From contig CAYSUL010000001.1 in NCBI GenBank assembly GCA_964434255.1, forward strand, positions 104,856-168,855: DNA of 64,000 nucleotides. The letters run 5' to 3'. Within the stretch, counting starts at the first letter, position 1. Each line of letters opens with the position of its first letter. Shown piece after piece: positions 3,978 to 63,796 of the stretch. The notes under the pieces were generated by a model. That model was not told the DNA's origin, searched no databases, and saw only the letters and a program-made list of their open reading frames with translations. Made by a program: the position numbers and the translations under genes. The stretch is from an uncultured Candidatus Saccharibacteria bacterium. GTDB taxonomy: Bacteria > Patescibacteriota > Minisyncoccia > Phycocordibacterales > Phycocordibacteraceae.

Positions 3978-6272
3978 CTAGAGCGTAACGGCCTTTAATC
4001 GAAGCGAATTGAGCACCACCGACACGCTCGAGAGCGCCATCGCGAGCCCCGCGATGACCGGGGACAAGAGTATCCCGAAGAACGGAAACAGGATGCCGGC
4101 AGCGATAGGAATACCGACGAGGTTGTAGAAGAATGCCCAGAACAGGTTCTGCTTGATGCCGCGCATCGTGAGGCGCGAGAGCTTTATGGCCTTCACAAGC
4201 TTCCCGATATCGCCTCCAAGGAGCGTGATCCCGGCCGTTTCTATCGCAACGTCCGTGCCCGTGCCCCTGGCCCTGCCTACAGCCGCTTGCGCGAGCGCCG
4301 GGGCATCGTTGCCGCCATCGCCCGCCATGGCCACGACATCCCCCTTCGCCTGGGTCCCCCGTAACGCTTCGAGCTTCACGTCGGTCCGGACTTCGGCCCC
4401 CGCCCCCTCCAGTCCCAACTCTCGGGCGAAAGCCGCTGCCGTTTGTTTATTATCGCCGGTAAGCATGACTATCGTGATGCCCATATGGTGCAGCGCCGCC
4501 ACTGCCGCTACGGACTCGGGCTTTATCGCGTCTGCGACGAGCACCAGAGCGATTATCTCTTTTTTGGTCGCGAGAACGATCGGCGTCCGTCCTTTAGCCG
4601 TATGCATCGCGAGCGAGTCCGTATCGAGCGGAAGCTTGAGATCACCGATGAGCTTCGTATTGCCCGCGAAGTATTCCGTTCCCTCCACGAGAGCTCGGAC
4701 CCCCTTCCCTTGGATGACTTCGAACCGCTCCGTCCGCACGGGCTCGACCGAGCGCTCGTGCGCATACGCGAGGACAGCCGTTGCGACCGGGTGCTCGGAC
4801 TTCTGCTCAAGCGAGGCGAGTATCCGTAGCACGTCCGTCTCGGTATGGTTCCCGTACGCCTCCACCACGACCACTTCGGGCTTTCCCTTCGTGATCGTGC
4901 CGGTCTTATCGACAACGATAGTATCCACCTCCTGGAGCTTCTGGAGCGTCGCGGCGTCCTTGATGAGGATGCCCTCCTGCGCTCCCTTGCCCACGCCCAC
5001 GATAACGGCGATAGGCGTCGCGAGCCCGAGCGCGCACGGGCACGCAATGACGAGGATGCCGACGAAGGACGTAAGGCCGAGCGAGAGCGCTGCAGCGAAC
5101 CCGAGCGCGGGTATGCCAAGGACAAGCCATGCCGCAAGTACGAGCACCGCGAATACGAGCACGATCGGGACGAAGACGCTCGAGAGCTTGTCGGCGAGCC
5201 CCTGTATAGGCGCCTTGCTGCCCTGCGCTTCGCCTACCATCCGTATGATGCTTGCAAGCAGGGTTTCAGAACCGACCTTCGTCGCCTTGAATATGAAATG
5301 GCCGTTCGTGTTTAGCGTGCCTGCCACGACGGTATCTCCCGGGTTTTTCTCCGCCGGCATCGGCTCGCCCGTGACCATGGACTCGTCTACGTACGAACTT
5401 CCTTCGGTGAGCACGCCGTCGACCGGAATCTTCCCGCCGGGCCGCACGACGACGAGGTCGCCATGCGTCACCTGGTCTACTGGAACGGACACCTCCTTCC
5501 CGTCCCGCATCAGGAATGCGGTCTTCGCCTGGAGGTTGAGCAGTTTCTCGATGGCGTCGCCGGTCTTGAGCTTCGAACGGGCTTCGAGGTATTTGCCGAG
5601 CGCGATGAATGCGATCACGACGATCGTGACGTCGTAGTAGGTTTGGTCGACGTTCAGCAGGCCTCGGAGCGGCTCCTCGAAGGCTGTAAGGATGAAGCTG
5701 TAGAGGAACGCGACCGAGGTGCCGATGCCGATGAGCGTATCCATGTTCGCCTTGCCGTAGCGGACGAAGCGGTAGAAGCCGAGCAGATAGGGCTTCCCTA
5801 CCACCACCATGGTGTAGGTCGCGAAGATAGGCAGGAGATGGTGGAAGAACTCGTACCAGATCAGAGGCATGGCAGCGAGCACACCGAACTCTCCCAGCAT
5901 CTCCCAACCCATGACGAAGACGCTGAACGCAGCGAGCGGCAGCACCGAGAGCACCTTCCATTGCATATCCTTAATCTCTTCGAGCTTCTCCGCCTTCGAT
6001 TGAGTGATGCCGGTGTGCGCGGCATGCTCGTCAGGGGACATATTCATGCTTTCGGCGGTAGGCACGACGAGCGAGTAGCCGAGGGGTTGTATCTGTTTGG
6101 AAAGCTCGTGGGGGTCCGTCTTCGACTCGTCGAACGCAATCTTCGCCGTTTCGGTGCCGTAACTGACTTCGACGTGCTCCACGCCCGCCACCTTCTTGAC
6201 CGCTCGCTCGATGATGCTCGCGCAGGAGGCGCAGTGCATTCCCTTGATCCGGTAGGTCTTATGGTCGCTCAT
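3978..6272 (-). CDS. copA: Copper-translocating P1B-type ATPase
   Basis: N-terminal HMA (GMHCASCA), the membrane CPC motif ([12 protein letters not shown]), DKTGTIT phosphorylation site and the [10 protein letters not shown] hinge. Total length 764 aa. Confidence 0.92.
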
Positions 6273-6608: not shown

Positions 6609-7058
6609 ATGAACCACAGCAAGAACTACCACCGACTCGCACTCATGTTCGGACTCCACCTCATCGCGATGTACATCCTCATGTACGCGATGGTGAATAC
6701 CTTCGCAAACGCGGTCCCGAACCATAATCAGCTCTATATGGCCGTGCTCATGGCCTCCCCGATGCTCGTGCTCGAGCTCTGGCTCATGGGTTCTATGTAT
6801 CAGAATAAGAAGCTGAACGGCGGGATCATCATTGCAGGGCTTCTCTTGCTTGTTGGCTCGTTCTTTTTCATCCGGCAGCAGACCGCCATTGCCGACGAGC
6901 AGTTCTTAAAATCGATGATCCCCCACCATGCCGGGGCCATCCTCATGTGCGAAAAGGCCGATCTCACGGATCCTCAAATAAAAGAGCTGTGCGGGAATAT
7001 CGTATCCGGCCAGCAGGCGGAGATAGATTGGATGAGGGCGAAGCTGGAAACGCTATAG
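6609..7058 (+). CDS. DUF305 family protein (copper-resistance associated, ferritin-like)
   Basis: Contains the HHxxAI motif (IPHHAGAILMC) with N-terminal TM helices. ATG at 6609-6611. Only the C-terminal 149 aa of the long 5463..7058 ORF is credible; the rest is antisense to copA. Confidence 0.65.
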   Translation: MNHSKNYHRLALMFGLHLIAMYILMYAMVNTFANAVPNHNQLYMAVLMASPMLVLELWLMGSMYQNKKLNGGIIIAGLLLLVGSFFFIRQQTAIADEQFLKSMIPHHAGAILMCEKADLTDPQIKELCGNIVSGQQAEIDWMRAKLETL

Positions 7059-7460
7059 AGCTAGCTCGTCGGTAGTCCCGCCTTCGTAGTGCTCATCATC
7101 CTTCTCGGCGTCCTTCTTGGTCTTGTGGACTATCGCATCCTCGTGGTGGGGCGGCGCGTAGAGAGTATAGAGCTTGAGGGCATCGCTTGAGGACAGGTTC
7201 TTGATATTGTGGCGCACGCCCGCGGGGATCACCACTGCCGATCCGTCGGTGAGATCGCGCTCGACGCCATCGAGGACGCTCTGCCCTTCCCCTTCCTCGA
7301 TGCGGATGAACTGATCGACGTCATGCACCTCCTCCCCGATGTCTTCGCCCGCTGGGATCGACATAAGGACGAGCTGGCAGTGCTCTGCGGTATACAGCAC
7401 GCGCCTGAAGTCCTCGTTCTCAAGGGTCTCGGCTTCTATATTGGTTACGAATCCTTTCAT
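7053..7460 (-). CDS. Cupin domain protein
   Basis: Two cupin motifs (G(x)5HxH-like: EEVHDVDQF; PAGVRHNIKN). Confidence 0.55.
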   Translation of the reverse strand: MKGFVTNIEAETLENEDFRRVLYTAEHCQLVLMSIPAGEDIGEEVHDVDQFIRIEEGEGQSVLDGVERDLTDGSAVVIPAGVRHNIKNLSSSDALKLYTLYAPPHHEDAIVHKTKKDAEKDDEHYEGGTTDELAL

Positions 7461-7470
7461 ATGTATTTAG

Positions 7471-8139
7471 TTATTGCGCCGTATCCTGCAGGCGCATGCT
7501 GGTAACTATCTGATCGATATGTGTATCGGGTATCTCCGACTTTCCAGACCGGTCATACCACACGACGACGACCGGATAATCCGGGTTCTTCGTTTCGATG
7601 AAGTTGATGAAGAATACCTGGTCGTCGCATACCTCGAACCCATTGCAGGCAGGAGAGTAGCCGACCTTCACGTACTCAAGACCGTGCTCATTCGTCATCT
7701 TCGCGCAGGAAAGCGGGAGCGGGCCACGCGCGCAGAAATCCTCGATGTCCTTCTCGCTGAACGTGTCCTCATAGCGCCGCTCGCGTGGCAGCGGATGGAG
7801 CGAAAATAGGCGGCTCTCCGCCGAAAAGAACCAGCGCGGTTCGTTCGCGCGCGTCGTCCCGAGGTAGCGGTGCTCGCACCCGTCGCTTGCCGTCAGCAAG
7901 GAGTCGTCGCACTCACCAAGCTCCTGCGCTTCTTCCCTGATTTCGCCCAGCTCCGAGGAATACTCGAAGGCGATCCCCATGGCTGGGCTTGCATAGGTCT
8001 CGGTAGTCGGCACTGCGAGCGGGAACGTACCCCCTTCGCGGCGCACGCCAGCATAGAAGCTCATGCCAGCGATGAGGGTAAAGATGACGATGAAGAGCGC
8101 GATTCGTGCAGGGAGCGATTGTTTGATGTACGCGATCAT
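7471..8139 (-). CDS. Hypothetical membrane-anchored cysteine-rich protein
   Basis: N-terminal TM helix followed by an extracytoplasmic domain with about 8 Cys. No family recognised. Confidence 0.4.
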   Translation of the reverse strand: MIAYIKQSLPARIALFIVIFTLIAGMSFYAGVRREGGTFPLAVPTTETYASPAMGIAFEYSSELGEIREEAQELGECDDSLLTASDGCEHRYLGTTRANEPRWFFSAESRLFSLHPLPRERRYEDTFSEKDIEDFCARGPLPLSCAKMTNEHGLEYVKVGYSPACNGFEVCDDQVFFINFIETKNPDYPVVVVWYDRSGKSEIPDTHIDQIVTSMRLQDTAQ

Positions 8140-13109: not shown

Positions 13110-13688
13110 TTAGTTGAACATGTTCCAGTAAGCGGAAGGGTTCTTCCAGTCGGGATAGTGTTCTTCCAACCAGTCGTTGATTTTCTTTTGCAGCTCCTTC
13201 AGAGAAGCTTCTCTTGTCTCTTTAGGAATGCGAACTTCGTATTCCCCATACAGACGTTCTCCATAAGGATTTTCGATCCATTGAGAGCGCGTCGTGTAGG
13301 ATTCATCTTCACCCGCACTGAACCCTGTCCACTGGGTGAGAGCGTACTGTAAGCGGAGTACGGGAGGTTTGAATCTCCACCGTTTCAGCCGCCCATCAGC
13401 GTGAGTACCAGGCATGTAATGATTGGGGCGCAGTGCGTCCAGAATCCTACCGCGAAGCTGCTCACGTTCGTCCAGCAGAAGCGGCCGGCCGTTTTCCAGT
13501 AGTATGTGCCAGCCCTTAGGCAAACTCACGGTCTGCCAGCCCTGATGATCACCTGATTGTCCGAACTCGCGCCCGAATGGAGTGATGCCCAAAGTGCGAA
13601 GTATTGTTTCGACATCTTCGTCATCAACCTCGTTCATTACGATTTTGAGTGGAATCTCATTCCAACGATCTTGCGTTCTGGGCATTGC
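13110..13688 (-). CDS. Hypothetical protein
   Basis: ORF with good coding periodicity. Start chosen at MPRTQDRW. No family recognised. Confidence 0.35.
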   Translation of the reverse strand, partial: AMPRTQDRWNEIPLKIVMNEVDDEDVETILRTLGITPFGREFGQSGDHQGWQTVSLPKGWHILLENGRPLLLDEREQLRGRILDALRPNHYMPGTHADGRLKRWRFKPPVLRLQYALTQWTGFSAGEDESYTTRSQWIENPYGERLYGEYEVRIPKETREASLKELQKKINDWLEEHYPDWKNPSAYWNMFN

Positions 13689-13755
13689 CCGCCTCCAGTG
13701 TGAGTGGTTCCTGTTCTGAGTATTAAAATAGCACACTATACATAAAAGTCAATTG

Positions 13756-13826
13756 CTGCGAGACTAGGACTCGAACCTAGATAACATCCTCCAGAGGGAT
13801 GCGTCCTACCATTAGACGATCTCGCA
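13756..13826 (-). tRNA. tRNA-Gln (anticodon CUG)
   Basis: Cloverleaf folded by hand: U1-A72 acceptor (typical bacterial tRNA-Gln), anticodon loop CUCUGGA, T-loop TTCGAGT, discriminator G. Its translation appears as an artefact in the ORF track. Confidence 0.8.
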
Positions 13827-15067: not shown

Positions 15068-16720
15068 TTATCCCCTAAAGTCCGCACGCTTCTGCGCCGC
15101 CTCGAGGAACTTCGTGAAAAGTGGGTGCGGCGTGAGTGGACGCGCCTGAAGCTCCGGATGGAACTGGCAGCCCAGATAGAACGGATGTTCGGTCTTAGGA
15201 AGTTCCGCTATCTCCATGAGCACGCCGTCAGGTGACTTCCCCGAGAATACGAGACCCTTCTGGGTAAGCCGCTCGATGTATTCCGGATTTATCTCGTACC
15301 GATGGCGATGGCGCTCTTCTACGACGTCAGCTCCGTATGCTTCCTGCGCAATAGTGCCCTTCGTGAGGTGCGCGGGATACGAACCGAGGCGCATAGTGCC
15401 GCCATACTTCCCCTCGGCGATAAGCGCCTTCTGGTCCGGCATCACGTCGACGACCGGGTGCGCAGCATTCGGGTCTATCTCCACCGTGTGCGCTCCCTCG
15501 AGCCCGAGCACATTGCGTGCGTACTCGATAACGAGCATATGCATGCCATAGCAGAGGCCGAAATACGGGATACGGTGCGTCCTCGTATATTCCGCCGCCT
15601 TTATCTTCCCTTCTATCCCGGTCTCGCCGAACCCGCCCGGTACGATGACGCCGTCATACTGCTCAAGCTTCTCAGCATCTTCCTTCGTTTCTATATCCTT
15701 GGCGTTCACCCATTCGATGATGGCCTTAACGCCGACTGCAGCAGCCGAGAACTTGAGCGCCTCGATGACGGAAAGATAGGCGTCTGAGAGCACGAAATCG
15801 CCCGTATCAAAGTACTTCCCGACGATACCTATCTTCACCGTCGGTTTCTCCACCTTCGTCCTGTCCACAAACTCCTTCCAGTCCGAGAAATCGGCAGCCT
15901 TGTCCTTCGGGAGCGAAAGCGCATCGAGGAGCAAGTCGCCGAGATTATCCTTCTCGAAGTTGAGCGGCACGTCATAGATGCTCGCGACGTCAGGTGCCGA
16001 GATGATGTGGTCAGGGCGCACGTTGCACCAGATGGCGAGCTTCTCCTTCCGCTTCTCGTCCATCGTGTTGTTGCTGCGCGCAAGGATGAAATCCGGCTGC
16101 ACTCCATACGAGTTAAGTTCGCGGACGGCCGATTGAGTGGGCTTGGTCTTCATCTCCCCTATCGTATTAGGCACCGGCAAGTATGAAACGAGCACGAAAC
16201 GCACGTCGTCGGGCTTCTTGAGACGCATCACGCGTGCCGCTTCGATGAAGAGCGCATTCTGGAAGTCGCCCACCGTCCCGCCTATCTCTATAACGGAGAT
16301 GCGGCTGCCGTTGTGTGCAGCCGCCGTTTCCAGGCGCTCGATGATTTCATCACGGACGTGCGGGATAGCCTCGACGAACTTGCCCTTGTAGCCGAGCGCG
16401 CGCTCGCGGTTGATGACCGACTGGTACACCATACCGCTCGTCATGTAGTCCTCAGGACCCAGATCGCGTCCGAGGAAGCGCTCGTAGTTGCCCATGTCCT
16501 GGTCGGTCTCGAGCCCGCTCTTGAGCACGAACACCTCGCCGTGCTCGGTCGGGTTCATGGTGCCCGCGTCCACATTGAGGTACGGGTCTATCTTCACGAG
16601 ATTCACGTCGTACCCGCGCTCCTTGAGAATGAGCCCCATTGAGGAGGTGGCGATGCCCTTGCCCACGCCGCTCATCACGCCGCCCAGAACGAATATGTAC
16701 TTATGACCTTCCTTCGCCAT
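15068..16720 (-). CDS. pyrG: CTP synthase
   Basis: N-terminal synthetase domain (YIFVLGGVMSGVGKG) and C-terminal glutamine amidotransferase (GLCYGMH...HPE). Length 550 aa. Confidence 0.92.
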   Translation of the reverse strand: MAKEGHKYIFVLGGVMSGVGKGIATSSMGLILKERGYDVNLVKIDPYLNVDAGTMNPTEHGEVFVLKSGLETDQDMGNYERFLGRDLGPEDYMTSGMVYQSVINRERALGYKGKFVEAIPHVRDEIIERLETAAAHNGSRISVIEIGGTVGDFQNALFIEAARVMRLKKPDDVRFVLVSYLPVPNTIGEMKTKPTQSAVRELNSYGVQPDFILARSNNTMDEKRKEKLAIWCNVRPDHIISAPDVASIYDVPLNFEKDNLGDLLLDALSLPKDKAADFSDWKEFVDRTKVEKPTVKIGIVGKYFDTGDFVLSDAYLSVIEALKFSAAAVGVKAIIEWVNAKDIETKEDAEKLEQYDGVIVPGGFGETGIEGKIKAAEYTRTHRIPYFGLCYGMHMLVIEYARNVLGLEGAHTVEIDPNAAHPVVDVMPDQKALIAEGKYGGTMRLGSYPAHLTKGTIAQEAYGADVVEERHRHRYEINPEYIERLTQKGLVFSGKSPDGVLMEIAELPKTEHPFYLGCQFHPELQARPLTPHPLFTKFLEAAQKRADFRG

Positions 16721-18346: not shown

Positions 18347-19216
18347 TTATACCCCACCCTCGCGGGAAGCGTCTATAAAATCATCCAGGTCACCCGCAAG
18401 GACGGCGTCCGGATTACCGGATTCGTGCCCCGTCTCGTGGTCCTTCACCATCTTATACGGATGCAGGACGTAGGAACGCATCTGGGAGCCCCATTCGTTG
18501 GCAGTGGACGGCGCTATGGAGCGGCCTTTCGCCTCGGCTTCGCGGCGTTCCTCCTCCATACGGAACAGCTTCGCTTGGATGAACTCGAGCGCCTTCTCCC
18601 GGTTGGCGAGCTGGCTCCGCTCGCTCGACACATGGACCGATACGCCGCTCGGGGTGTGGGTAATACGCACCGCGGTCTCCCGCTTATTCACGTTCTGGCC
18701 GCCAGCTCCCCCTGACTTCGCGAACTGGATATCGAGGTCGTCCGACCGGAGCTCCACCTTGTGCTGTGCATCGAGCTTCGGGAGCACCTCGACCAGCGCG
18801 AATGAGGTCTGGCGCTTGTCGTTGGCGTTAAACGGCGAGATACGCACGAGACGATGTACGCCCGCTTCGTTCTTCAGCCTCCCGTATACCCCCTTCCCCG
18901 TTATTTCAAGGAGAAGGTTGCGGAACCCGCCATGATTGTTCTCGTTCGCATGGAGTTCGAGCACGCTCCATCCTTTCGACTTCGCGTATCCCTCGTACAT
19001 ACGGCGGAGCATGGCAGCGAAGTCCTCCGCATCATCGCCACCCGCGCCTGCGAGTATCGCGAGGGTCGCGCTCCCGCCGTCGAGCGAGTCTCCATCCCCT
19101 CCCTCCTTGAGTGATTGGTATTCAGCGACACGGCGCTGCGCTTCGTCTTTATCCGCCCAGAAGTCAGGACTCGCCATGAGCGCCTCTATCTCCTTCATCC
19201 GCTCCTCGGGATTCAT
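18347..19216 (-). CDS. prfB: Peptide chain release factor 2 (short domain-1 form, no programmed frameshift)
   Basis: SPF tripeptide (RISPFNAN) and GGQ (SGGAGGQNVN). 289 aa with domain 1 about 55 aa shorter than E. coli RF2. No upstream CUU-UGA frameshift cassette is present. Confidence 0.85.
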   Translation of the reverse strand: MNPEERMKEIEALMASPDFWADKDEAQRRVAEYQSLKEGGDGDSLDGGSATLAILAGAGGDDAEDFAAMLRRMYEGYAKSKGWSVLELHANENNHGGFRNLLLEITGKGVYGRLKNEAGVHRLVRISPFNANDKRQTSFALVEVLPKLDAQHKVELRSDDLDIQFAKSGGAGGQNVNKRETAVRITHTPSGVSVHVSSERSQLANREKALEFIQAKLFRMEEERREAEAKGRSIAPSTANEWGSQMRSYVLHPYKMVKDHETGHESGNPDAVLAGDLDDFIDASREGGV

Positions 19217-19548
19217 TGAGGGAGTATAGCAAAGCGGCGCCCGAGGGCGCCGCAGTCGCTAATTGAGACCGGCGGAGCGCTGGAGACGGATGAGCCCGCC
19301 AACTACGCACTCCTCTGGATCGAATGGTTCTGCCAACACGAGGTAATACGGATGGGAATCGCCACTGATCCAATATCGCGTGTCTGCCGGAGACGGAGTA
19401 GTGAGAAGTTTTGTAAAAGCCGGTTCGGTCGTGCAGTCGCGGAAGACCATTGCCCCGCTCGCATCCACGAATTCGAGGGAGACTCGCATGGGGAAACCTC
19501 TCTGCATGCTGTTGCGGGTTACACCTGCAATAAGGATAGCACCTGCTT

Positions 19549-19624
19549 TGGAGCCGAAGGGGAGATTCGAACTCCCGACATTTCGCTTACGATGCGAACG
19601 CTCTACCAACTGAGCTACTTCGGC
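19549..19624 (-). tRNA. tRNA-Thr (anticodon CGU)
   Basis: 76-nt cloverleaf with anticodon loop AUCGUAA and an encoded CCA end. The ORF-track artefact EVAQLVERS is its translation. Confidence 0.85.
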
Positions 19625-19641
19625 GAAGTGTAGGGAATATA

Positions 19642-20112
19642 TCATAATCCCGAATTCTTGCGAGAGCGTTTTCTATAAAGAAGGCCTGCCTCCTTCGCAC
19701 GATTACTGATAGCTCGGTTGGGCCTACCCTTACCTTTGTTTAAGGCAGCAAACGTGGTGGTAAGTGCATCACAATTCGGACAGAGAAGCCGTAGGTTCCC
19801 TTCAGAATTATTCCTCCAATTACCATCAATATGATCCGCCACGAGCGGCGCCTCTCCTGTTTTTGGGTTCTTTTCCGACCATCCGCACACACAGCATTTA
19901 TTTTCGAACTTCTCACGTAAATACCTTTTGACTGTCTTGTTGACCAAGCCAATACTAGTCAGTCCAGCTACTTCCCCAGATTTCCATCGCTTTATAAATA
20001 TCCTGTTTTGATATACGAACTGACACTTATTGCTGCAATATTTATAAGTGGAACGCGGAGTTTCTCCGCCACAAGCGAGACAGGGCGTCCTCGGCTTCTT
20101 CGGGTTCGGCAT
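19642..20112 (-). CDS. HNH endonuclease (low-GC, probably horizontally acquired)
   Basis: HNH motif (ADHIDGNWRNNSEGNLRLLCPNC) with N-terminal CxxC...C zinc-ribbon-like cysteines. Local GC about 45% versus about 60% background. Directly adjacent to tRNA-Thr. Confidence 0.7.
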   Translation of the reverse strand: MPNPKKPRTPCLACGGETPRSTYKYCSNKCQFVYQNRIFIKRWKSGEVAGLTSIGLVNKTVKRYLREKFENKCCVCGWSEKNPKTGEAPLVADHIDGNWRNNSEGNLRLLCPNCDALTTTFAALNKGKGRPNRAISNRAKEAGLLYRKRSRKNSGL

Positions 20113-20153
20113 ACCCCACCTCTATACCAGATAGAGATAATGAAAATATGAAA

Positions 20154-20750
20154 TTACGCGTGCTTCTTCCAGTAGAACAGGCCGATAAGCGTACCGATGA
20201 TGCTTCCGATGAGATTCACGACGAGATCGATCGCGGTGTTGTAGTAGCCGCCAACATCGGTGTCCGGGATGGTGAGCTTCGCTATGAACTCGATTATCTC
20301 GTTCGCGGCGCCGATGCCCATCGCACCGAATATGGTCAGGAGCGCGAGACCGATGGGGTGGAACTTCCCGTCGCGGGCGAGGAAGAAATAGACGGCGAGT
20401 GCCGCGATGATGGAGCCATACGTATGAACTATCTGATCGAACTTGATGAACGTGAGCCCGGTCGGATTATCGAGCGGCATGACCACATAGTTATAGAGGA
20501 CGTCATTCGCCACCTGTATGCCGCCACCGAGTATATGGAGGAGCATCTGGAGCGAGAGCATCCAGAGGAGCCAATCGGGCAGGCACGTCCATTTGAGCGT
20601 GCAGGCGACGAGCGCCAATATGAGGGCAACCGCAGCGATATATCCCAAGAACTCCGTGTTCCCTACCGATATGAAATAGAACACCGCAATGACGATGTAT
20701 GCGAGCGTGAATAGGCCGAGCGCTATCCGGGAGGGGGTGATGATATTCAT
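20154..20750 (-). CDS. Hypothetical integral membrane protein
   Basis: 5-6 TM helices. No confident family. Confidence 0.4.
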   Translation of the reverse strand: MNIITPSRIALGLFTLAYIVIAVFYFISVGNTEFLGYIAAVALILALVACTLKWTCLPDWLLWMLSLQMLLHILGGGIQVANDVLYNYVVMPLDNPTGLTFIKFDQIVHTYGSIIAALAVYFFLARDGKFHPIGLALLTIFGAMGIGAANEIIEFIAKLTIPDTDVGGYYNTAIDLVVNLIGSIIGTLIGLFYWKKHA

Positions 20751-20814
20751 GCTCTTGCTGTTGAGTCTCCGTAGCTAATACTACTGACCATGAAGAATAG
20801 TTGAATTCGAGTTG

Positions 20815-20886
20815 AGCCGATGGGCAGAATTGAACTGCCGACCTACTCCTTACCATGGAGTTGCTCTACCCCTGAGCTACATCGGC
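20815..20886 (-). tRNA. tRNA-Thr (anticodon GGU)
   Basis: Cloverleaf with anticodon loop AUGGUAA and T-loop TTCAATT. Confidence 0.85.
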
Positions 20887-20982: not shown

Positions 20983-21711
20983 ATGCGCATAGCCGTGATA
21001 AATCTCCAGTCCGGCATCGGCACCACGAAAGGCTACGGCCAATATGCCACCTCGGGATGGAAATACGTCCTTCCGCACGGAGCGAAGTATGTACGCGAAG
21101 CAGGGGCGCTTGTCGCTGCTGAGGATATCGATATCGCCCTCATTACGGAAGTGGACGACCGAGGCCTTCGTTCAGGCTTCCTTCCTCAGAGCGAAACCCT
21201 CAGTGAATACTCGGGTATTCCGCATACCAGGTTCTTCCCGACCCGTACCATTGCCCCGCTCGTGGTCGAGGGGAACACCATTCTCTCTCGGTATCCGATA
21301 ACCCATACGGAGACGCACCCACTTTCCATCGGGACTATCCCCCGCGTTATGGGAGAGATCATCGTCCATGTCGAGGAGCAACGGGTGCATGTATTCGTTG
21401 CGCACCTGGGCATACGCAACATCGCACGCGCGAAGCAGATACAAGATATCCATCGCATCATTACGGAACGCGACGAGCCCGTCATACTCGGCGGGGACTT
21501 CAATGAACGCGATCACGAAGCGTTCGAGATACTGCGGACTGCGGGCTTCGCGCATATAGTCGCGCTCCCCACCTTCCCGTCATGGAAGCCGGTCCATTCA
21601 CTCTCGGTACTTTTCCTATCGGATCACTTCCACGCTCCGACATCATCCATACCTGACGCCGCTTCTTTCTCGGACCATTTGCCGCTGCTGGCTGAAACTA
21701 GCTTTCGATAG
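20983..21711 (+). CDS. Endonuclease/exonuclease/phosphatase (EEP) family protein
   Basis: EEP pattern (INLQSG..., GGDFNE, SDHLPL). The track ORF starts at 20812, but the 5' 57 codons are antisense to the tRNA; ATG at 20983 was chosen. Confidence 0.6.
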   Translation: MRIAVINLQSGIGTTKGYGQYATSGWKYVLPHGAKYVREAGALVAAEDIDIALITEVDDRGLRSGFLPQSETLSEYSGIPHTRFFPTRTIAPLVVEGNTILSRYPITHTETHPLSIGTIPRVMGEIIVHVEEQRVHVFVAHLGIRNIARAKQIQDIHRIITERDEPVILGGDFNERDHEAFEILRTAGFAHIVALPTFPSWKPVHSLSVLFLSDHFHAPTSSIPDAASFSDHLPLLAETSFR

Positions 21712-21760: not shown

Positions 21761-22042
21761 CGCGGTCGACCGGACTTGAACCGGCAACCTTCCGCGTGCA
21801 TGCTACCCCCCTACTTTCGTAGGGGCATGGACTATATCTTCACCATAGGTTTCCCCGTAGGTGCTCCGGTATCTAGTCTCTACGGCGCCCCCCTCCGAGT
21901 GAGGGGGTTCCCTCGGTATTCGCATATCCTGGTAGACCAGGACTTAGCATTCACCGATATCCCAGAGAGTTTCAACTTGACTTTCGAACAAGAAGCTGCC
22001 TAATCGACAGGCGGATGCTCTAACCAGTTGAGCTACGACCGC
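21761..22042 (-). tRNA. tRNA-Asp (anticodon GUC) interrupted by a 208-nt group I intron in the anticodon loop
   Basis: Exon 1 (22042-22007) is GCGGTCGTAGCTCAACTGGTTAGAGCATCCGCCUGU. Exon 2 (21798-21761) is CACGCGGAAGGTTGCCGGTTCAAGTCCGGTCGACCGCG. The spliced product folds as tRNA-Asp with loop CUGUCAC and discriminator G73. Confidence 0.6.
21799..22006 (-). ncRNA. Group I self-splicing intron (ORF-less, compact) within tRNA-Asp
   Basis: Contains group I core elements in the correct order: R-like GTAGAGACTAGA, a P4-like CGGGGAAACC and the S element AAGATATAGTCC. P1 can form between exon CUGU|C and intron GGCAG with a U-G pair at the splice site. The intron ends in G before the 3' exon. Confidence 0.55.
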
Positions 22043-22120: not shown

Positions 22121-22197
22121 TGGTGCCGACGGCAGGGAACGATCCTGCGACCTTAGCTTTATGAGTGCTACGCTCTAACCAACTGAGCTACGTCGGC
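22121..22197 (-). tRNA. tRNA with CAU anticodon (elongator Met or Ile2/lysidine type), atypical A54/U58 T-loop
   Basis: Cloverleaf with acceptor GCCGACG/CGTCGGC, anticodon loop CUCAUAA and T-arm GCAGG-ATCGTTC-CCTGC. CCA is encoded. No initiator features (G1-C72). Confidence 0.7.
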
Positions 22198-22876
22198 AAT
22201 TCTCGATTTGAGCAATGCGCTCTATATAGGCCAATATCTTGTCTCTAATATCTGTACCCTTTGAGACACGCAATGCCAGAACACCATAATACACATCGCG
22301 GTTCTCGTAAATCTTTTTCCCTCTATCTAGGAAGGTGGTGCGTCGGAATTGACTAATCGGAATATCGAGAGCCTTGCTCCAAAACCGTAGAATGTCTGTC
22401 TCGCGGTCGCGATGCGTGTCGCTTATGAATATCCGTGGCATGAAACGAGACTTCTCCACCTCGAGACATTCCATGAACCAACGACTCATGAGTTGAATGA
22501 CCCGTGGGTCTGAATTTATCAGAGCGAGCGACCCAGAGTTCGATTTAACGCCCTCTCCCCAGTACAAGCCTATCCCGATTAGGAACAGCTCCCTATCCGT
22601 AAGATCAGGCAGAATGTTGATAGCTTCTTCCTGCGCGACTTTCAGACGATTCGATCGCTTCATTCTATTCATCTCAGCCCCAATCATCCGTCCGCGATGG
22701 CCTGCCACTATCTGTTTCGCATGAAGTACCTCCTTTTGCTCCGGTGTTAACTCGATATCTCGAAGCCACAAACTGACCGTGCTGGGAGCGATTTTTATCG
22801 CCCGGCCTATTTCCTTAACGCTCATCCCTTTCCGCCTCAGTTCGATAGCCCTTCGTTTCTCCTCTGGTTTAGCCAT
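22175..22876 (-). CDS. HTH domain protein with LAGLIDADG-like (GLYWGEG) motif; putative free-standing homing endonuclease (paralog of 59121..59795)
   Basis: N-terminal HTH (MSVKEIGRAIKIAPSTVSLWL) followed by FLIGIGLYWGEGVKS, resembling the LAGLIDADG block (cf. GLWIGDG). Low local GC. Its 3' end overlaps the first 23 nt of the downstream tRNA. Confidence 0.45.
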   Translation of the reverse strand: MAKPEEKRRAIELRRKGMSVKEIGRAIKIAPSTVSLWLRDIELTPEQKEVLHAKQIVAGHRGRMIGAEMNRMKRSNRLKVAQEEAINILPDLTDRELFLIGIGLYWGEGVKSNSGSLALINSDPRVIQLMSRWFMECLEVEKSRFMPRIFISDTHRDRETDILRFWSKALDIPISQFRRTTFLDRGKKIYENRDVYYGVLALRVSKGTDIRDKILAYIERIAQIENCRRSSVG

Positions 22877-23031
22877 ATGTATCGCTATCATTTTCCTGCA
22901 GGCCTCATCATCATTTCCTGGAATTTATATAAAGGAAATCTGGAATAGTAATCGTCTCGCTATGCCCACCACACCTCTTTCCTTCGTCCCATTCGCGAAG
23001 CTCCCTGTTACAATCCACTCAACATAGCCGC

Positions 23032-59120: not shown

Positions 59121-59795
59121 TCACGGAGGTAAGTTCCGTGCAAATGTATCGCGAATACTTTCGAGGCATGCGTGCACATATTCGGATACATCGCGATTCC
59201 CATAGAGGATATTGCAGGTTCCATGAGTGAACCGTTGCGTGTAGGTAAGTCCGCTTCGGCTCGATGACTTGATGTATGGTTTTCGGAAAGCCGTTCTCGG
59301 CAGATCTAGTACCTCTGACCAATAATTCAATTCGGCTTCCGCATCCATGTCCTGATAAAGATGTATGCACACCTTCAATTTCTCTCTCGGCACGCCGAAC
59401 ATTTCCAGCCATTTGATAAAGAAGATCAATACCGCGGGATCCGTGTTCGATATAGCAGTAAGAGTATTCTGAGTCTTACTCCCTTCACCCCAATATAGAA
59501 ACAGGCCCGCTATGAACATTTCACGTTCGGACAGTGTAGAGACATCTTTCGCTGCGCGTTCATAGACTCCCTCAAGTCGTGTGCGTTTCTTCAGCGCCTT
59601 CGTCTCTCGACACTTCTCAATCCTGCGCTCACTCCATCCACGCAGCTCGTTGATTCGCTCTCGAGAAAGCGGATAGTCCTGCAACCAGATACTTAGTGTC
59701 CCCTTACTTACACCAAGCGCCGCTTTTATCTGGCTGTAGCTCATCTGCTGCATCCGCATTTCAAGCGCTCGCGCCTTTAATTCTCGTTTAGCCAT
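59121..59795 (-). CDS. HTH domain protein with LAGLIDADG-like (GLFLYWGEG) motif; putative homing endonuclease (paralog of 22175..22876)
   Basis: Collinear similarity to the 22175..22876 product (MAKxE..., LSIWLQD, FIAGLFLYWGEGSK, ISNTDP, WSEVLDLP). Low GC. Located 13 nt upstream of tRNA-Ile(UAU). Confidence 0.45.
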   Translation of the reverse strand: MAKRELKARALEMRMQQMSYSQIKAALGVSKGTLSIWLQDYPLSRERINELRGWSERRIEKCRETKALKKRTRLEGVYERAAKDVSTLSEREMFIAGLFLYWGEGSKTQNTLTAISNTDPAVLIFFIKWLEMFGVPREKLKVCIHLYQDMDAEAELNYWSEVLDLPRTAFRKPYIKSSSRSGLTYTQRFTHGTCNILYGNRDVSEYVHACLESIRDTFARNLPP

Positions 59796-59914
59796 AGTAC
59801 TTAGGAGTAGTGCACACAAAGTACTAACTCCTAGTTCAAATATTCCTGGAGAAATAATAGGGGAAAGCTGAAAACCGCCGAGACATATGTCTCGGCGGTT
59901 TTCATGTGAGTTAC

Positions 59915-63292: not shown

Positions 63293-63699
63293 GGGGGTGA
63301 CCGGCTTTGACGGTCTGTACTTTGAGAGACGTGCGACGCGATGGAAGATTGCTGACCATCTAAATCCCGCAATCAACCAATACTTGCAAACAAAACTGTT
63401 GCAAGCGTAAAGTCTCCGTACTTCGGTAAGGAAAGCTTTGCGTTCGCTTACGCGTAAAAGCTTCGCGCTTTCGCCTAAGCGACGTCTTTTTCTCTCGGTT
63501 CTCGTAGCGAGGGGAAGGGGCGGAATCTTCTACGGGATCGGCTCGTGCTCTCCTAGGCACCGAGCTTAAACAACAGGATCAGGAAGGAGCGTTTTCGCTA
63601 GCGTTCTTATTCTCCTTCTGAAGCATCAACACTAGCTATGCGTCGTAGATTCGTCCTCAAAGCCAGATTCGGACCGGAGTTCAACTCTCCGCACCTCCA
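63293..63699 (+). ncRNA. ssrA: tmRNA (SsrA)
   Basis: 5' GGGGGUGACCGGCUUUGACGG resembles the tmRNA 5' end. The 3' tRNA-like T-arm GGAGTTCAACTCTCC is followed by acceptor CACCUCC-A-CC, giving the alanine determinant G3-U70. An internal tag ORF appears to end ...FAFAYA-stop. Located after smpB. Confidence 0.7.
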
Positions 63700-63796
63700 C
63701 CTAGTTTCACTAAAGGCCTCGAAAGAGGCCTTTAGTGTTGGCGTGTCTTGATGGATTGGAGGTTCTAATCTTTCGCAGCAACCTCTAAAAATTCCC

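Follow-up and report, generated by a model that had tools for sequence, protein, structure and literature searches.

Free-standing homing endonuclease genes in tRNA regions are textbook elements of phages such as T4 and T5. SegB of phage T4 is a homing endonuclease of the GIY-YIG family that is encoded in the tRNA gene region and drives the preferential inheritance of that region; the start and stop codons of its open reading frame (ORF) are removed by the processing of the flanking tRNAs, which its authors proposed to limit expression (PMC2330249). In the accounts given in PMC2330249 and PMC10644984, the F-Tfl HNH enzymes of phage T5 (Akulenko et al. 2004) are site-specific or homing endonucleases of the tRNA cluster. 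Regarding Patescibacteria, HNH (PF01844) endonuclease genes have been reported inside the introns of tRNA-Asn genes, in a study that describes neither endonuclease genes residing in tRNA flanks nor a link to tRNA-Thr(CGU) (PMC13011429). Here we present the analysis of a free-standing HNH nuclease gene that lies directly upstream of tRNA-Thr(CGU) in a stretch of 64,000 nt (positions 104,856 to 168,855 of contig CAYSUL010000001.1, hereafter the window) from an uncultured Candidatus Saccharibacteria bacterium. The gene represents a kind already known, the free-standing homing-type HNH endonuclease genes of tRNA regions, but in this case resides in a cellular chromosome. It belongs to a widespread tRNA-Thr(CGU)-specific clade that appears to lack a prior description.

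The protein gp177 of the T5-like phage HdH2 is of the same family as the window protein, with an identity of 38% over 120 residues (11-126, zinc ribbon included; E 2e-25). Its ORF ends 1 nt into a tRNA-Thr gene inside a tRNA cluster, a position that parallels that of the window gene, and the equivalent site of phage T5 is empty, as are sites in the bacteria (see below). The HNH core of the window protein is shared with T5 hegA (T5.075; hhalign 97.5%, E 6e-12). Unlike the T5-type genes, the window gene lies in a bacterial chromosome, at a single tRNA-Thr(CGU) gene upstream of prfB and not in a phage tRNA array, and its bacterial clade is tied to one tRNA species. The T5 genes hegC and hegD overlap tRNAs as well, but their HNH type differs from that of the window gene: in the T5 genome (NC_005859), hegD (5398-5979) and hegC (7023-7607) overlap the 5' ends of tRNA-Gln2 and tRNA-Ser2 by 23 and 14 nt, respectively. 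An ORF end inside a tRNA is thus not peculiar to one protein family. With SegB the window gene shares the position of a free-standing endonuclease gene amid tRNA genes, and the form of the family in which the stop codon lies inside the tRNA (see below) parallels the trimming of the SegB ORF; SegB differs in having the GIY-YIG instead of the HNH fold, in being a phage gene, and in that its activity has been demonstrated, whereas that of the window protein is predicted. The intron-borne genes of PMC13011429 come from the same phylum and likewise illustrate how selfish elements make use of tRNA genes, but the window gene occupies the 5' flank of a tRNA gene and no intron.

On the minus strand, the gene order is the DUF2238 gene, a 41-nt spacer, the HNH ORF, a gap of 17 nt, tRNA-Thr(CGU) on the same strand, approximately 270 nt of extra DNA, a terminator hairpin, prfB, ftsE, ftsX and pyrG (Table 1). 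A Rfam scan detected no intron at the site of the HNH ORF, which is a separate ORF between the DUF2238 gene and the tRNA. The first-pass annotation, made from the sequence of the window, had placed an HNH gene of about 45% GC between tRNA-Thr(CGU) and a membrane-protein gene, and both the position and the composition were found as described: 400-nt windows across 19600-20199 have a GC content of 45-46%, compared with 57.4% for the whole window, and the membrane protein belongs to the DUF2238 family. It had also proposed a sliding-GC and codon-usage analysis, in which the HNH ORF ranked first among the 58 genes of the window for low GC, for low GC at third codon positions (GC3) and for codon-usage deviation. 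The GC content of the ORF is 0.465 versus 0.576 +/- 0.029 in the other 57 genes (z = -3.76), its GC3 is 0.465 versus 0.699 +/- 0.072 (z = -3.27), and its codon-usage deviation is 1.23 per codon (median of the others 0.20, 95th percentile 0.57). The anomaly is real and lies far beyond the gene-to-gene scatter of the window. This single gene accounts for the strongest local composition anomaly of the window without a large island.

The ORF encodes, as judged from its sequence, an HNH (His-Me finger) protein with predicted nuclease activity. An N-terminal zinc ribbon of the form CxxC...CxxxC (C11, C14, C26 and C30), which is weakly YacG-like, is followed by a helical linker and a C-terminal HNH core. 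In an alignment of 25 diverse relatives (mean column identity 60%) the zinc ribbon is invariant, as are the core residues C73, C76, D93, H94, N102, N106, C111, N113 and C114 within the motif CxxC...DHIDGNWRNN.E.NLRL.CPNC. The zinc pairs C73/C76 and C111/C114 together with D93-H94, N102, N106 and N113 represent the expected set of HNH catalytic, metal and zinc residues. Matches were obtained to HNH families of PHROG (3.4e-16, 4.2e-15 and 1.8e-14), and the best PADLOC match was a model labeled 'homing endonuclease' (5.6e-11). The best Pfam family, HNH_3, scored below its gathering cut-off (E 0.0017; 18.4 versus 24.8 bits). Among solved structures, a PDB sequence search returned solely I-HmuI of Bacillus phage SPO1 (PDB 1u3e; Pfam HNH_3), in a short, sub-threshold match (E 0.3) across the motif DHxDGNxxNNxxxNLR; unlike the window protein, I-HmuI is encoded within a group I intron and contains neither the CxxC zinc pairs nor the N-terminal zinc ribbon. 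In an AF2 model (pLDDT 77), strands 91-94 and 107-110 followed by helix 112-115 form a beta-beta-alpha-metal fold. The best Foldseek matches in the PDB were the HNH domains of McrA, ScoMcrA, Cap5 and Cas9, all of them weak (E 0.04 or worse, TM approximately 0.35, probability 0.9-0.97). Structurally, the model is nearer to McrA-type zinc-bearing HNH domains than to I-HmuI.

The window is a genome segment of Patescibacteria (Parcubacteria/Paceibacteria type). The exact window protein was found solely on contigs from the Hainich groundwater metagenome and on Logan contigs, and the nearest labeled relatives are assigned to Kaiserbacteria, Parcubacteria or Paceibacterota. A total of 1,778 database relatives was obtained; among the matches listed, identities were 62-72%, with one at 95%. 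A scan of one genome per species yielded at least 241 Patescibacteria species loci that encode the family, of which 80 were examined (hereafter the protein-selected loci); in these, the neighboring tRNA gene is single-copy. Members of the bacterial clade are closely similar, at 60-72% identity. The ORF is directly followed by tRNA-Thr(CGU) on the same strand in 77 of the 80 loci; regarding the other three, tRNA-Thr(CGU) directly precedes the ORF in two, and the contig ends 20 nt past the ORF in one. In all 91 records in which a tRNA gene adjoins the ORF, it is tRNA-Thr(CGU). The order HNH, tRNA-Thr, prfB, ftsE, ftsX, with prfB on the same strand, is common to 64 of the 80 loci, and the link to the tRNA persists where there is room downstream but prfB is not the neighbor. 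The upstream neighbor varies (DUF2238, tRNA-Thr(GGU), tRNA-Gly(CCC) and others; tRNA-Thr(GGU) in at least 14 related loci). The position of the gene follows the tRNA and not the surrounding neighborhood. The two loci with the reversed order (L023, CAYMXN010000002.1; L074, DASTLR010000007.1), in which the HNH gene stands directly 3' of tRNA-Thr(CGU), carry no tRNA fragment fused to the end of the HNH gene.

The junction was compared in 85 occupied loci (77 protein-selected loci, the window and seven metagenome loci), in which the ORF ends between -44 and +58 nt from the 5' end of the tRNA. The stop codon lies inside the tRNA in 39 of the 85, at tRNA positions 8-10 (U8-A9-G10; TAG, in some cases TAA) in 22 and in the D-arm or the anticodon loop in the remainder. 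Another 39, the window included, stop 14-58 nt upstream of the tRNA, mostly with a TGA that supplies the TG of an extended -10-like box TGATATAnT. This is also the case in the window, where the TG of the box TGATATATT is provided by the stop codon of the HNH ORF. A box of the form TGnTAnnnT is present 12-32 nt upstream of the tRNA in 35 of the 85 HNH-bearing loci, versus 9 of 44 loci that lack the gene. The box of the window, a candidate only, probably restores a promoter for the tRNA. In turn, the -10-like box TGGTATAGA before the HNH start codon resembles the tRNA promoter of empty sites and is a candidate that may drive the HNH gene; the regions compared were CTGGTATAGAGGTGGGGT followed by ATG in the window, CTCGGTATTGTACGAACAC followed by GCC in the empty site L088, and GGCTATTGTAGCCAGGACC followed by GCC in the empty site L093. 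A strict two-hexamer promoter scan called neither of the two boxes of the window. Within the clade of the window, the 17-nt leader before the tRNA is alike among occupied alleles and unrelated in empty alleles. The right boundary of the element is therefore the tRNA, which fits a role of the tRNA as homology arm.

According to the first-pass annotation, this arrangement resembles tRNA clusters of phages that are colonized by homing endonucleases, and a search for phage homologues was proposed. The likeness is, on the sequence comparisons, one of homology. Relatives with 34-56% identity over residues approximately 8-133 are encoded on 158 IMG/VR phage contigs, and 138 isolated phage genomes match, many of them T5-like. 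In the 80 of these contigs that were kept for locus analysis, tRNA genes lie within 4 kb of the gene in 79, and 52 of the ORFs terminate at a tRNA 5' end on the same strand, at distances of -37 to +60 nt (all but one within +12), with stop codons often at tRNA positions 8-10. The downstream tRNA in the phages is Thr(UGU) in 16 cases, Lys(UUU) in 12 cases and one of a range of others in the remainder; the seven closest phage relatives (48-56% identity) all precede tRNA-Thr(UGU). The phage gene is lower in GC than its own locus in 76 of the 80. A shared recognition motif in the D-arm ('box A') of the gene-adjacent phage tRNAs was not significant (p = 0.07). In the bacteria, the HNH gene is below prfB, ftsE and ftsX in GC at 53 of 60 loci (mean difference -7.2 points in GC and -16 points in GC3). 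Since low GC is thus found at most bacterial and phage loci, it is a trait of the family and no sign of a recent arrival in this genome.

Loci selected by the HNH protein are unable to answer whether the gene is conserved in synteny, which is why presence and absence were surveyed in 80 metagenome loci picked solely by PrfB similarity (53-99% identity). Regarding the 49 informative sites among them (tRNA-Thr(CGU) with at least 500 nt of upstream sequence), the HNH gene was present at 7 and missing from 42. In L088 (PrfB 83%, from the same aquifer), DUF2238 is followed by tRNA-Thr(CGU) after a gap of 33 nt, which represents an empty site within the gene order of the window. In L093 (PrfB 78%), the order is EEP, tRNA-Thr(GGU), DUF2238, tRNA-Thr(CGU), prfB, where EEP stands for an endonuclease/exonuclease/phosphatase family gene, and the site is likewise empty (gap of 41 nt). 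The PrfB of L093 differs by just 9% from that of the occupied locus L097. Parsimony on the PrfB tree of 102 loci requires a minimum of 18 gains or losses, and seven events for the seven occupied prfB-chosen loci and the window. The check for presence/absence polymorphism that the first-pass annotation had called for thus produced empty sites with the same gene order; against the ordinary composition and conserved synteny named there as grounds for abandoning its view stand a deviant codon usage and 42 of 49 sites without the gene, despite the synteny of 64 of the 80 protein-selected loci.

Two further ideas on the empty sites were tried and rejected. The first, that other endonuclease families fill them, found nothing in the upstream neighbors at HNH-free sites, which are host-looking ORFs of various kinds in which no nuclease motif was obvious (sequences read by eye). 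The second was an immunity or target polymorphism of the tRNA: the anticodon-arm type 'AC/C' (positions 31, 32 / 39) occurs at 5 of 85 occupied and 16 of 42 empty sites, a difference that is confounded with phylogeny and is not significant inside the clade of the window. The tRNA of the HNH-free locus L114 (PrfB 75%) is nearly identical to tRNA-Thr(CGU) of the window.

We consider it probable that the gene is a free-standing homing-endonuclease gene, outside any intron or intein, of an HNH family which has specialized on the 5' flank of tRNA genes, and we infer cleavage and homing as its mode of spread. In favor of this reading stand the HNH identity of the protein, its linkage to the tRNA, the patchy occupancy, the copy of L125 that has lost its catalytic core (see below), the decoupling from host divergence, the AT bias common to the family, the phage relatives and the purifying selection on the protein. 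In an allele without the HNH gene, the enzyme would recognize DNA within or beside tRNA-Thr(CGU) and would nick or cut there. Repair off an occupied allele would then copy the HNH gene in, with the conserved tRNA acting as the right homology arm; the tRNA is presumed to be either this arm or the recognition region. The donor DNA could arrive by DNA uptake or via phages. RNase P removes any tRNA leader, because of which residence in the 5' leader would be harmless to the host, and the leader would play the role that introns play for intron-borne endonucleases. Where the reading frame enters the tRNA and ends at U8-A9-G10, co-transcription is implied, and the stop codon would be lost upon processing.

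Alternatively, the gene could be a vertically inherited accessory host gene that is coupled to the unit of tRNA-Thr(CGU) and prfB, such as a co-transcribed cellular nuclease, ancestral in the class and repeatedly lost during genome reduction without being mobile. We regard this as unlikely. The 42 gene-less prfB-chosen sites, including relatives that are 9% apart in PrfB, argue against it, as do the link to the tRNA instead of prfB, the variable upstream neighbor, and the occurrence of other family members in phage tRNA arrays before many different tRNAs. The HNH protein also diverges in a way that differs from that of its neighbors. Its identity remains at approximately 65% throughout, while that of the host proteins PrfB and FtsE ranges from 45% to 85%, so that in comparison with release factor 2 (RF2) it is more conserved at deep and less conserved at shallow divergence. 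The Spearman correlations between HNH and host genes are 0.16 and 0.09, versus 0.76 between PrfB and FtsE, and the HNH dN is 0.26 for the pair L047/L054 (PrfB 91%) but 0.12 for L021/L080 (PrfB 48%). Triplets of HNH genes violate the host topology in 16-28% of cases (FtsE versus PrfB 0%; random expectation 67%), and the AT-rich codon usage of the HNH gene persists in GC-rich hosts. Horizontal transfer of the gene, as suggested by these comparisons, is likely but not proven, because dS is saturated in nearly all pairs. The sole unsaturated pair has a dN/dS of 0.054 for the HNH gene, compared with 0.059 for prfB; the protein is kept by purifying selection.

Several observations favor such a host gene or weigh against homing. 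The low dN/dS and the strong conservation of the protein would be expected of a host gene, and the shared order of HNH, tRNA-Thr, prfB, ftsE and ftsX counts in the same direction. Between 72 and 84% of the HNH triplets agree with the host tree, and presence is more clustered on the PrfB tree than random (18 changes versus a random mean of 31.8). The GC3 of the HNH gene partly tracks that of the host (r = 0.72, slope 0.44). The flat identity of 65% could in part reflect fast saturation of approximately 40% of the sites over an invariant core, since dS is saturated in almost all pairs. No polymorphism was observed within the species, as 7 of 7 contigs from the window's own population carry the gene, and a six-frame hmmsearch of the 44 HNH-free sites yielded no remnant (all E above 0.7). 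The sole degenerate copy found is that of L125 (Ga0190269_10027739, 1338-1685), one of the seven occupied sites, which lies between tRNA-Thr(GGU) and tRNA-Thr(CGU) and has an in-frame deletion of profile positions 67-104 that removes the DHIDGN...N core. With remnant-free empty sites and a single degenerate copy, precise loss or sites that were never invaded fit as well as a homing cycle. Co-conversion of the tRNA together with the gene was also considered and rejected, as tRNA and HNH identities are uncorrelated (rho 0.0007; partial Mantel p = 0.76). The gene shows vertical persistence together with an excess of discordance.

A stand-alone defense or toxin nuclease, comparable to the HNH effectors of Zorya (ZorE), Septu (PtuB) and CBASS (Cap5) and placed beside the tRNA by chance or in a small defense islet, is very improbable. 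There are weak PADLOC matches to ZorE (4e-6 to 5e-3) and PtuB (0.007), and the fold matches include Cap5 and McrA; the ZorE-, PtuB- and Cap5-type matches are, however, confined to the shared HNH core and outranked in PADLOC by the homing-endonuclease model, no partner genes are present among the neighbors (DUF2238, tRNAs and prfB), and the strict attachment to the 5' ends of tRNAs, common to phages and bacteria, is foreign to such systems. The least credible explanation is that the gene is left over from a prophage or integrative island inserted into the tRNA-Thr gene by an integrase: tRNA genes are classic integration sites and the HNH gene has phage homologues and low GC, but the insert of approximately 0.5 kb lies 5' of the tRNA and not at its 3' end, neither an integrase nearby nor a duplicated tRNA 3' segment or att-like repeat was found (the sole direct repeats in the att-repeat check were tRNA 5' halves common to different tRNAs), and the identical single-gene insert recurs in more than 80 species.

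If the gene is indeed a homing endonuclease gene of the tRNA flank, a wider reading can be put forward tentatively, with appreciable doubt: the tRNA 5' leader may be a general 'safe harbor' for selfish endonuclease genes, in which cleavage by RNase P replaces splicing. A single HNH family would then move back and forth between the tRNA arrays of phages and the chromosomes of Patescibacteria, its clades being adapted to particular tRNAs, i.e., Thr(CGU) in the bacteria and Thr(UGU) in the closest phage relatives. Where the stop codon lies inside the tRNA (U8-A9-G10), processing of the tRNA would strip it off the mRNA, by which synthesis of the endonuclease would be tied to and throttled by tRNA maturation, and the product would possibly be tagged by tmRNA. 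The unrelated family with a helix-turn-helix (HTH) and a LAGLIDADG-like domain, whose members precede tRNA-Met, -Ile, -Gly and -Gln in these same genomes (see below), would on such a reading indicate a convergent lifestyle and not the quirk of a single family.

A literature search found neither such genes beside tRNA-Thr in Patescibacteria nor free-standing homing endonucleases of tRNA regions as a recurrent trait of a cellular lineage. The family offers a marker of DNA exchange among episymbiotic bacteria of reduced genome size and their phages, a ready collection of occupied and empty alleles in which the target of the enzyme could be located, and a candidate for a compact tRNA-gene-specific nuclease. 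With respect to annotation, a gene in these genomes that abuts or overlaps the 5' end of a tRNA should not be written off as a miscall.

Table 1. Features of the HNH locus and its surroundings, in coordinates of the window.
Feature	Position	Strand	Evidence and remarks
Free-standing HNH endonuclease gene, 156 aa	19642..20112	-	ORF call and family matches
tRNA-Thr(CGU)	19549..19624	-	ARAGORN; Rfam 70.5 bits
Extended -10-like box TGATATATT	19636..19644	-	17-25 nt upstream of the tRNA 5' end; candidate tRNA promoter
Spacer between DUF2238 stop and HNH start, 41 nt	20113..20153	-	Holds -10-like TGGTATAGA at 20121-20129, 8 nt before ATG
DUF2238 membrane-protein gene	20154..20750	-	Pfam 1.5e-9; host gene on the left flank
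Terminator hairpin	19234-19253	-	Before prfB
prfB (release factor 2)	18347..19216	-	Pfam PCRF and RF-1; followed by ftsE, ftsX and pyrG; host context downstream of the tRNA
pyrG (CTP synthase)	15068-16720		
tRNA-Thr(GGU)	20814..20886	-	ARAGORN and Rfam
EEP family gene	20983..21711	+	Pfam Exo_endo_phos 5.8e-12
tRNA-Asp(GUC), split at anticodon position 35/36	21761..22042	-	Exons 22042-22007 and 21798-21761; missed by ARAGORN
Group I intron, 208 nt, ORF-less	21799-22006	-	Rfam RF00028, 44.9 bits, E 2e-9, full length, under the gathering score of 50
tRNA-Met(CAU)	22121..22197	-	ARAGORN and Rfam; first 23 nt shared with the 3' end of the ORF before it
238-aa ORF, HTH_23 N-terminus, possible LAGLIDADG-like C-terminal domain	22175..22891	-	GC 48.5%; unrelated to the HNH gene

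The wider region (19.5-22.9 kb) had been described in the first-pass annotation as a tRNA island rich in nucleases, with four tRNAs, a group I intron and three different nuclease-type genes (HNH, EEP and LAGLIDADG-like). The four tRNAs are tRNA-Thr(CGU), tRNA-Thr(GGU), tRNA-Met(CAU) and an intron-split tRNA-Asp(GUC), and a second ORF abuts a tRNA; the picture of an island is weakened by the EEP gene, for which the family assignment was borne out but which looks like an ordinary host gene outside the mobile element. Its GC content is 55.8% and its composition is ordinary, and a homologue of 46% identity is found at the same position in one relative, L093. The group I intron is located in tRNA-Asp(GUC) and carries no endonuclease gene. 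Because of the 208-nt intron, ARAGORN missed this tRNA, the joined exons of which fold as tRNA-Asp; the tRNA is uninterrupted in the related loci where ARAGORN calls tRNA-Asp. The intron at position 35/36 of tRNA-Asp is of a type that was described from Patescibacteria in 2026, with self-splicing demonstrated (PMC13011429).

For the ORF that overlaps tRNA-Met(CAU), the LAGLIDADG label is weakly supported. A paralogue is located at 59121-59819, adjoining tRNA-Ile(UAU), and these two ORFs have the second and third lowest GC content in the window. Their family occurs in Patescibacteria (178 database relatives) and has the motif GLGLYWGEG. Of approximately 14 independent loci, 9 have an ORF that terminates at a tRNA 5' end, at distances of -38 to +23 nt; the tRNA is Met, Ile(UAU), Gly or Gln.

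In the window, approximately 270 nt of extra DNA separate tRNA-Thr(CGU) from the terminator and promoter of prfB (19254-19548, minus strand), where many relatives have just approximately 50-60 nt. This extra DNA contains an ORF of 76 aa (19259-19489) without a Pfam match. An exact direct repeat of 16 nt, ACCATTGCCCCGCTCG, is present at 19446-19461 and 21247-21262 on the plus strand (approximately 0.002 expected by chance in 4.2 kb); one copy lies in the extra DNA downstream of tRNA-Thr(CGU) and the other within the EEP gene. The repeat may be a fragment of an EEP paralogue. Further downstream (19217-19253, minus strand), the ATG of prfB (19216) follows 6 nt after a TATACT box, which stands directly behind the GC-rich terminator hairpin. 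The arrangement 'ttgctatact' before prfB recurs in many related loci, which suggests a leaderless prfB mRNA. The prfB ORF comprises just 289 aa and has a shortened N-terminus.

Elsewhere in the window, a tmRNA gene is present at 63293-63701 on the plus strand (Rfam 102.7 bits; tag peptide ANKTVASVKSPYFGKESFAFAYA). An ORF of 208 aa (13110-13736, minus strand) lies beside tRNA-Gln(CUG) (13755-13826). It has the fourth lowest GC content (50.9%) and the third most deviant codon usage among the genes of the window, and it matches the integrase core rve_3 weakly (E 0.004); possibly it is what is left of a transposase or integrase.

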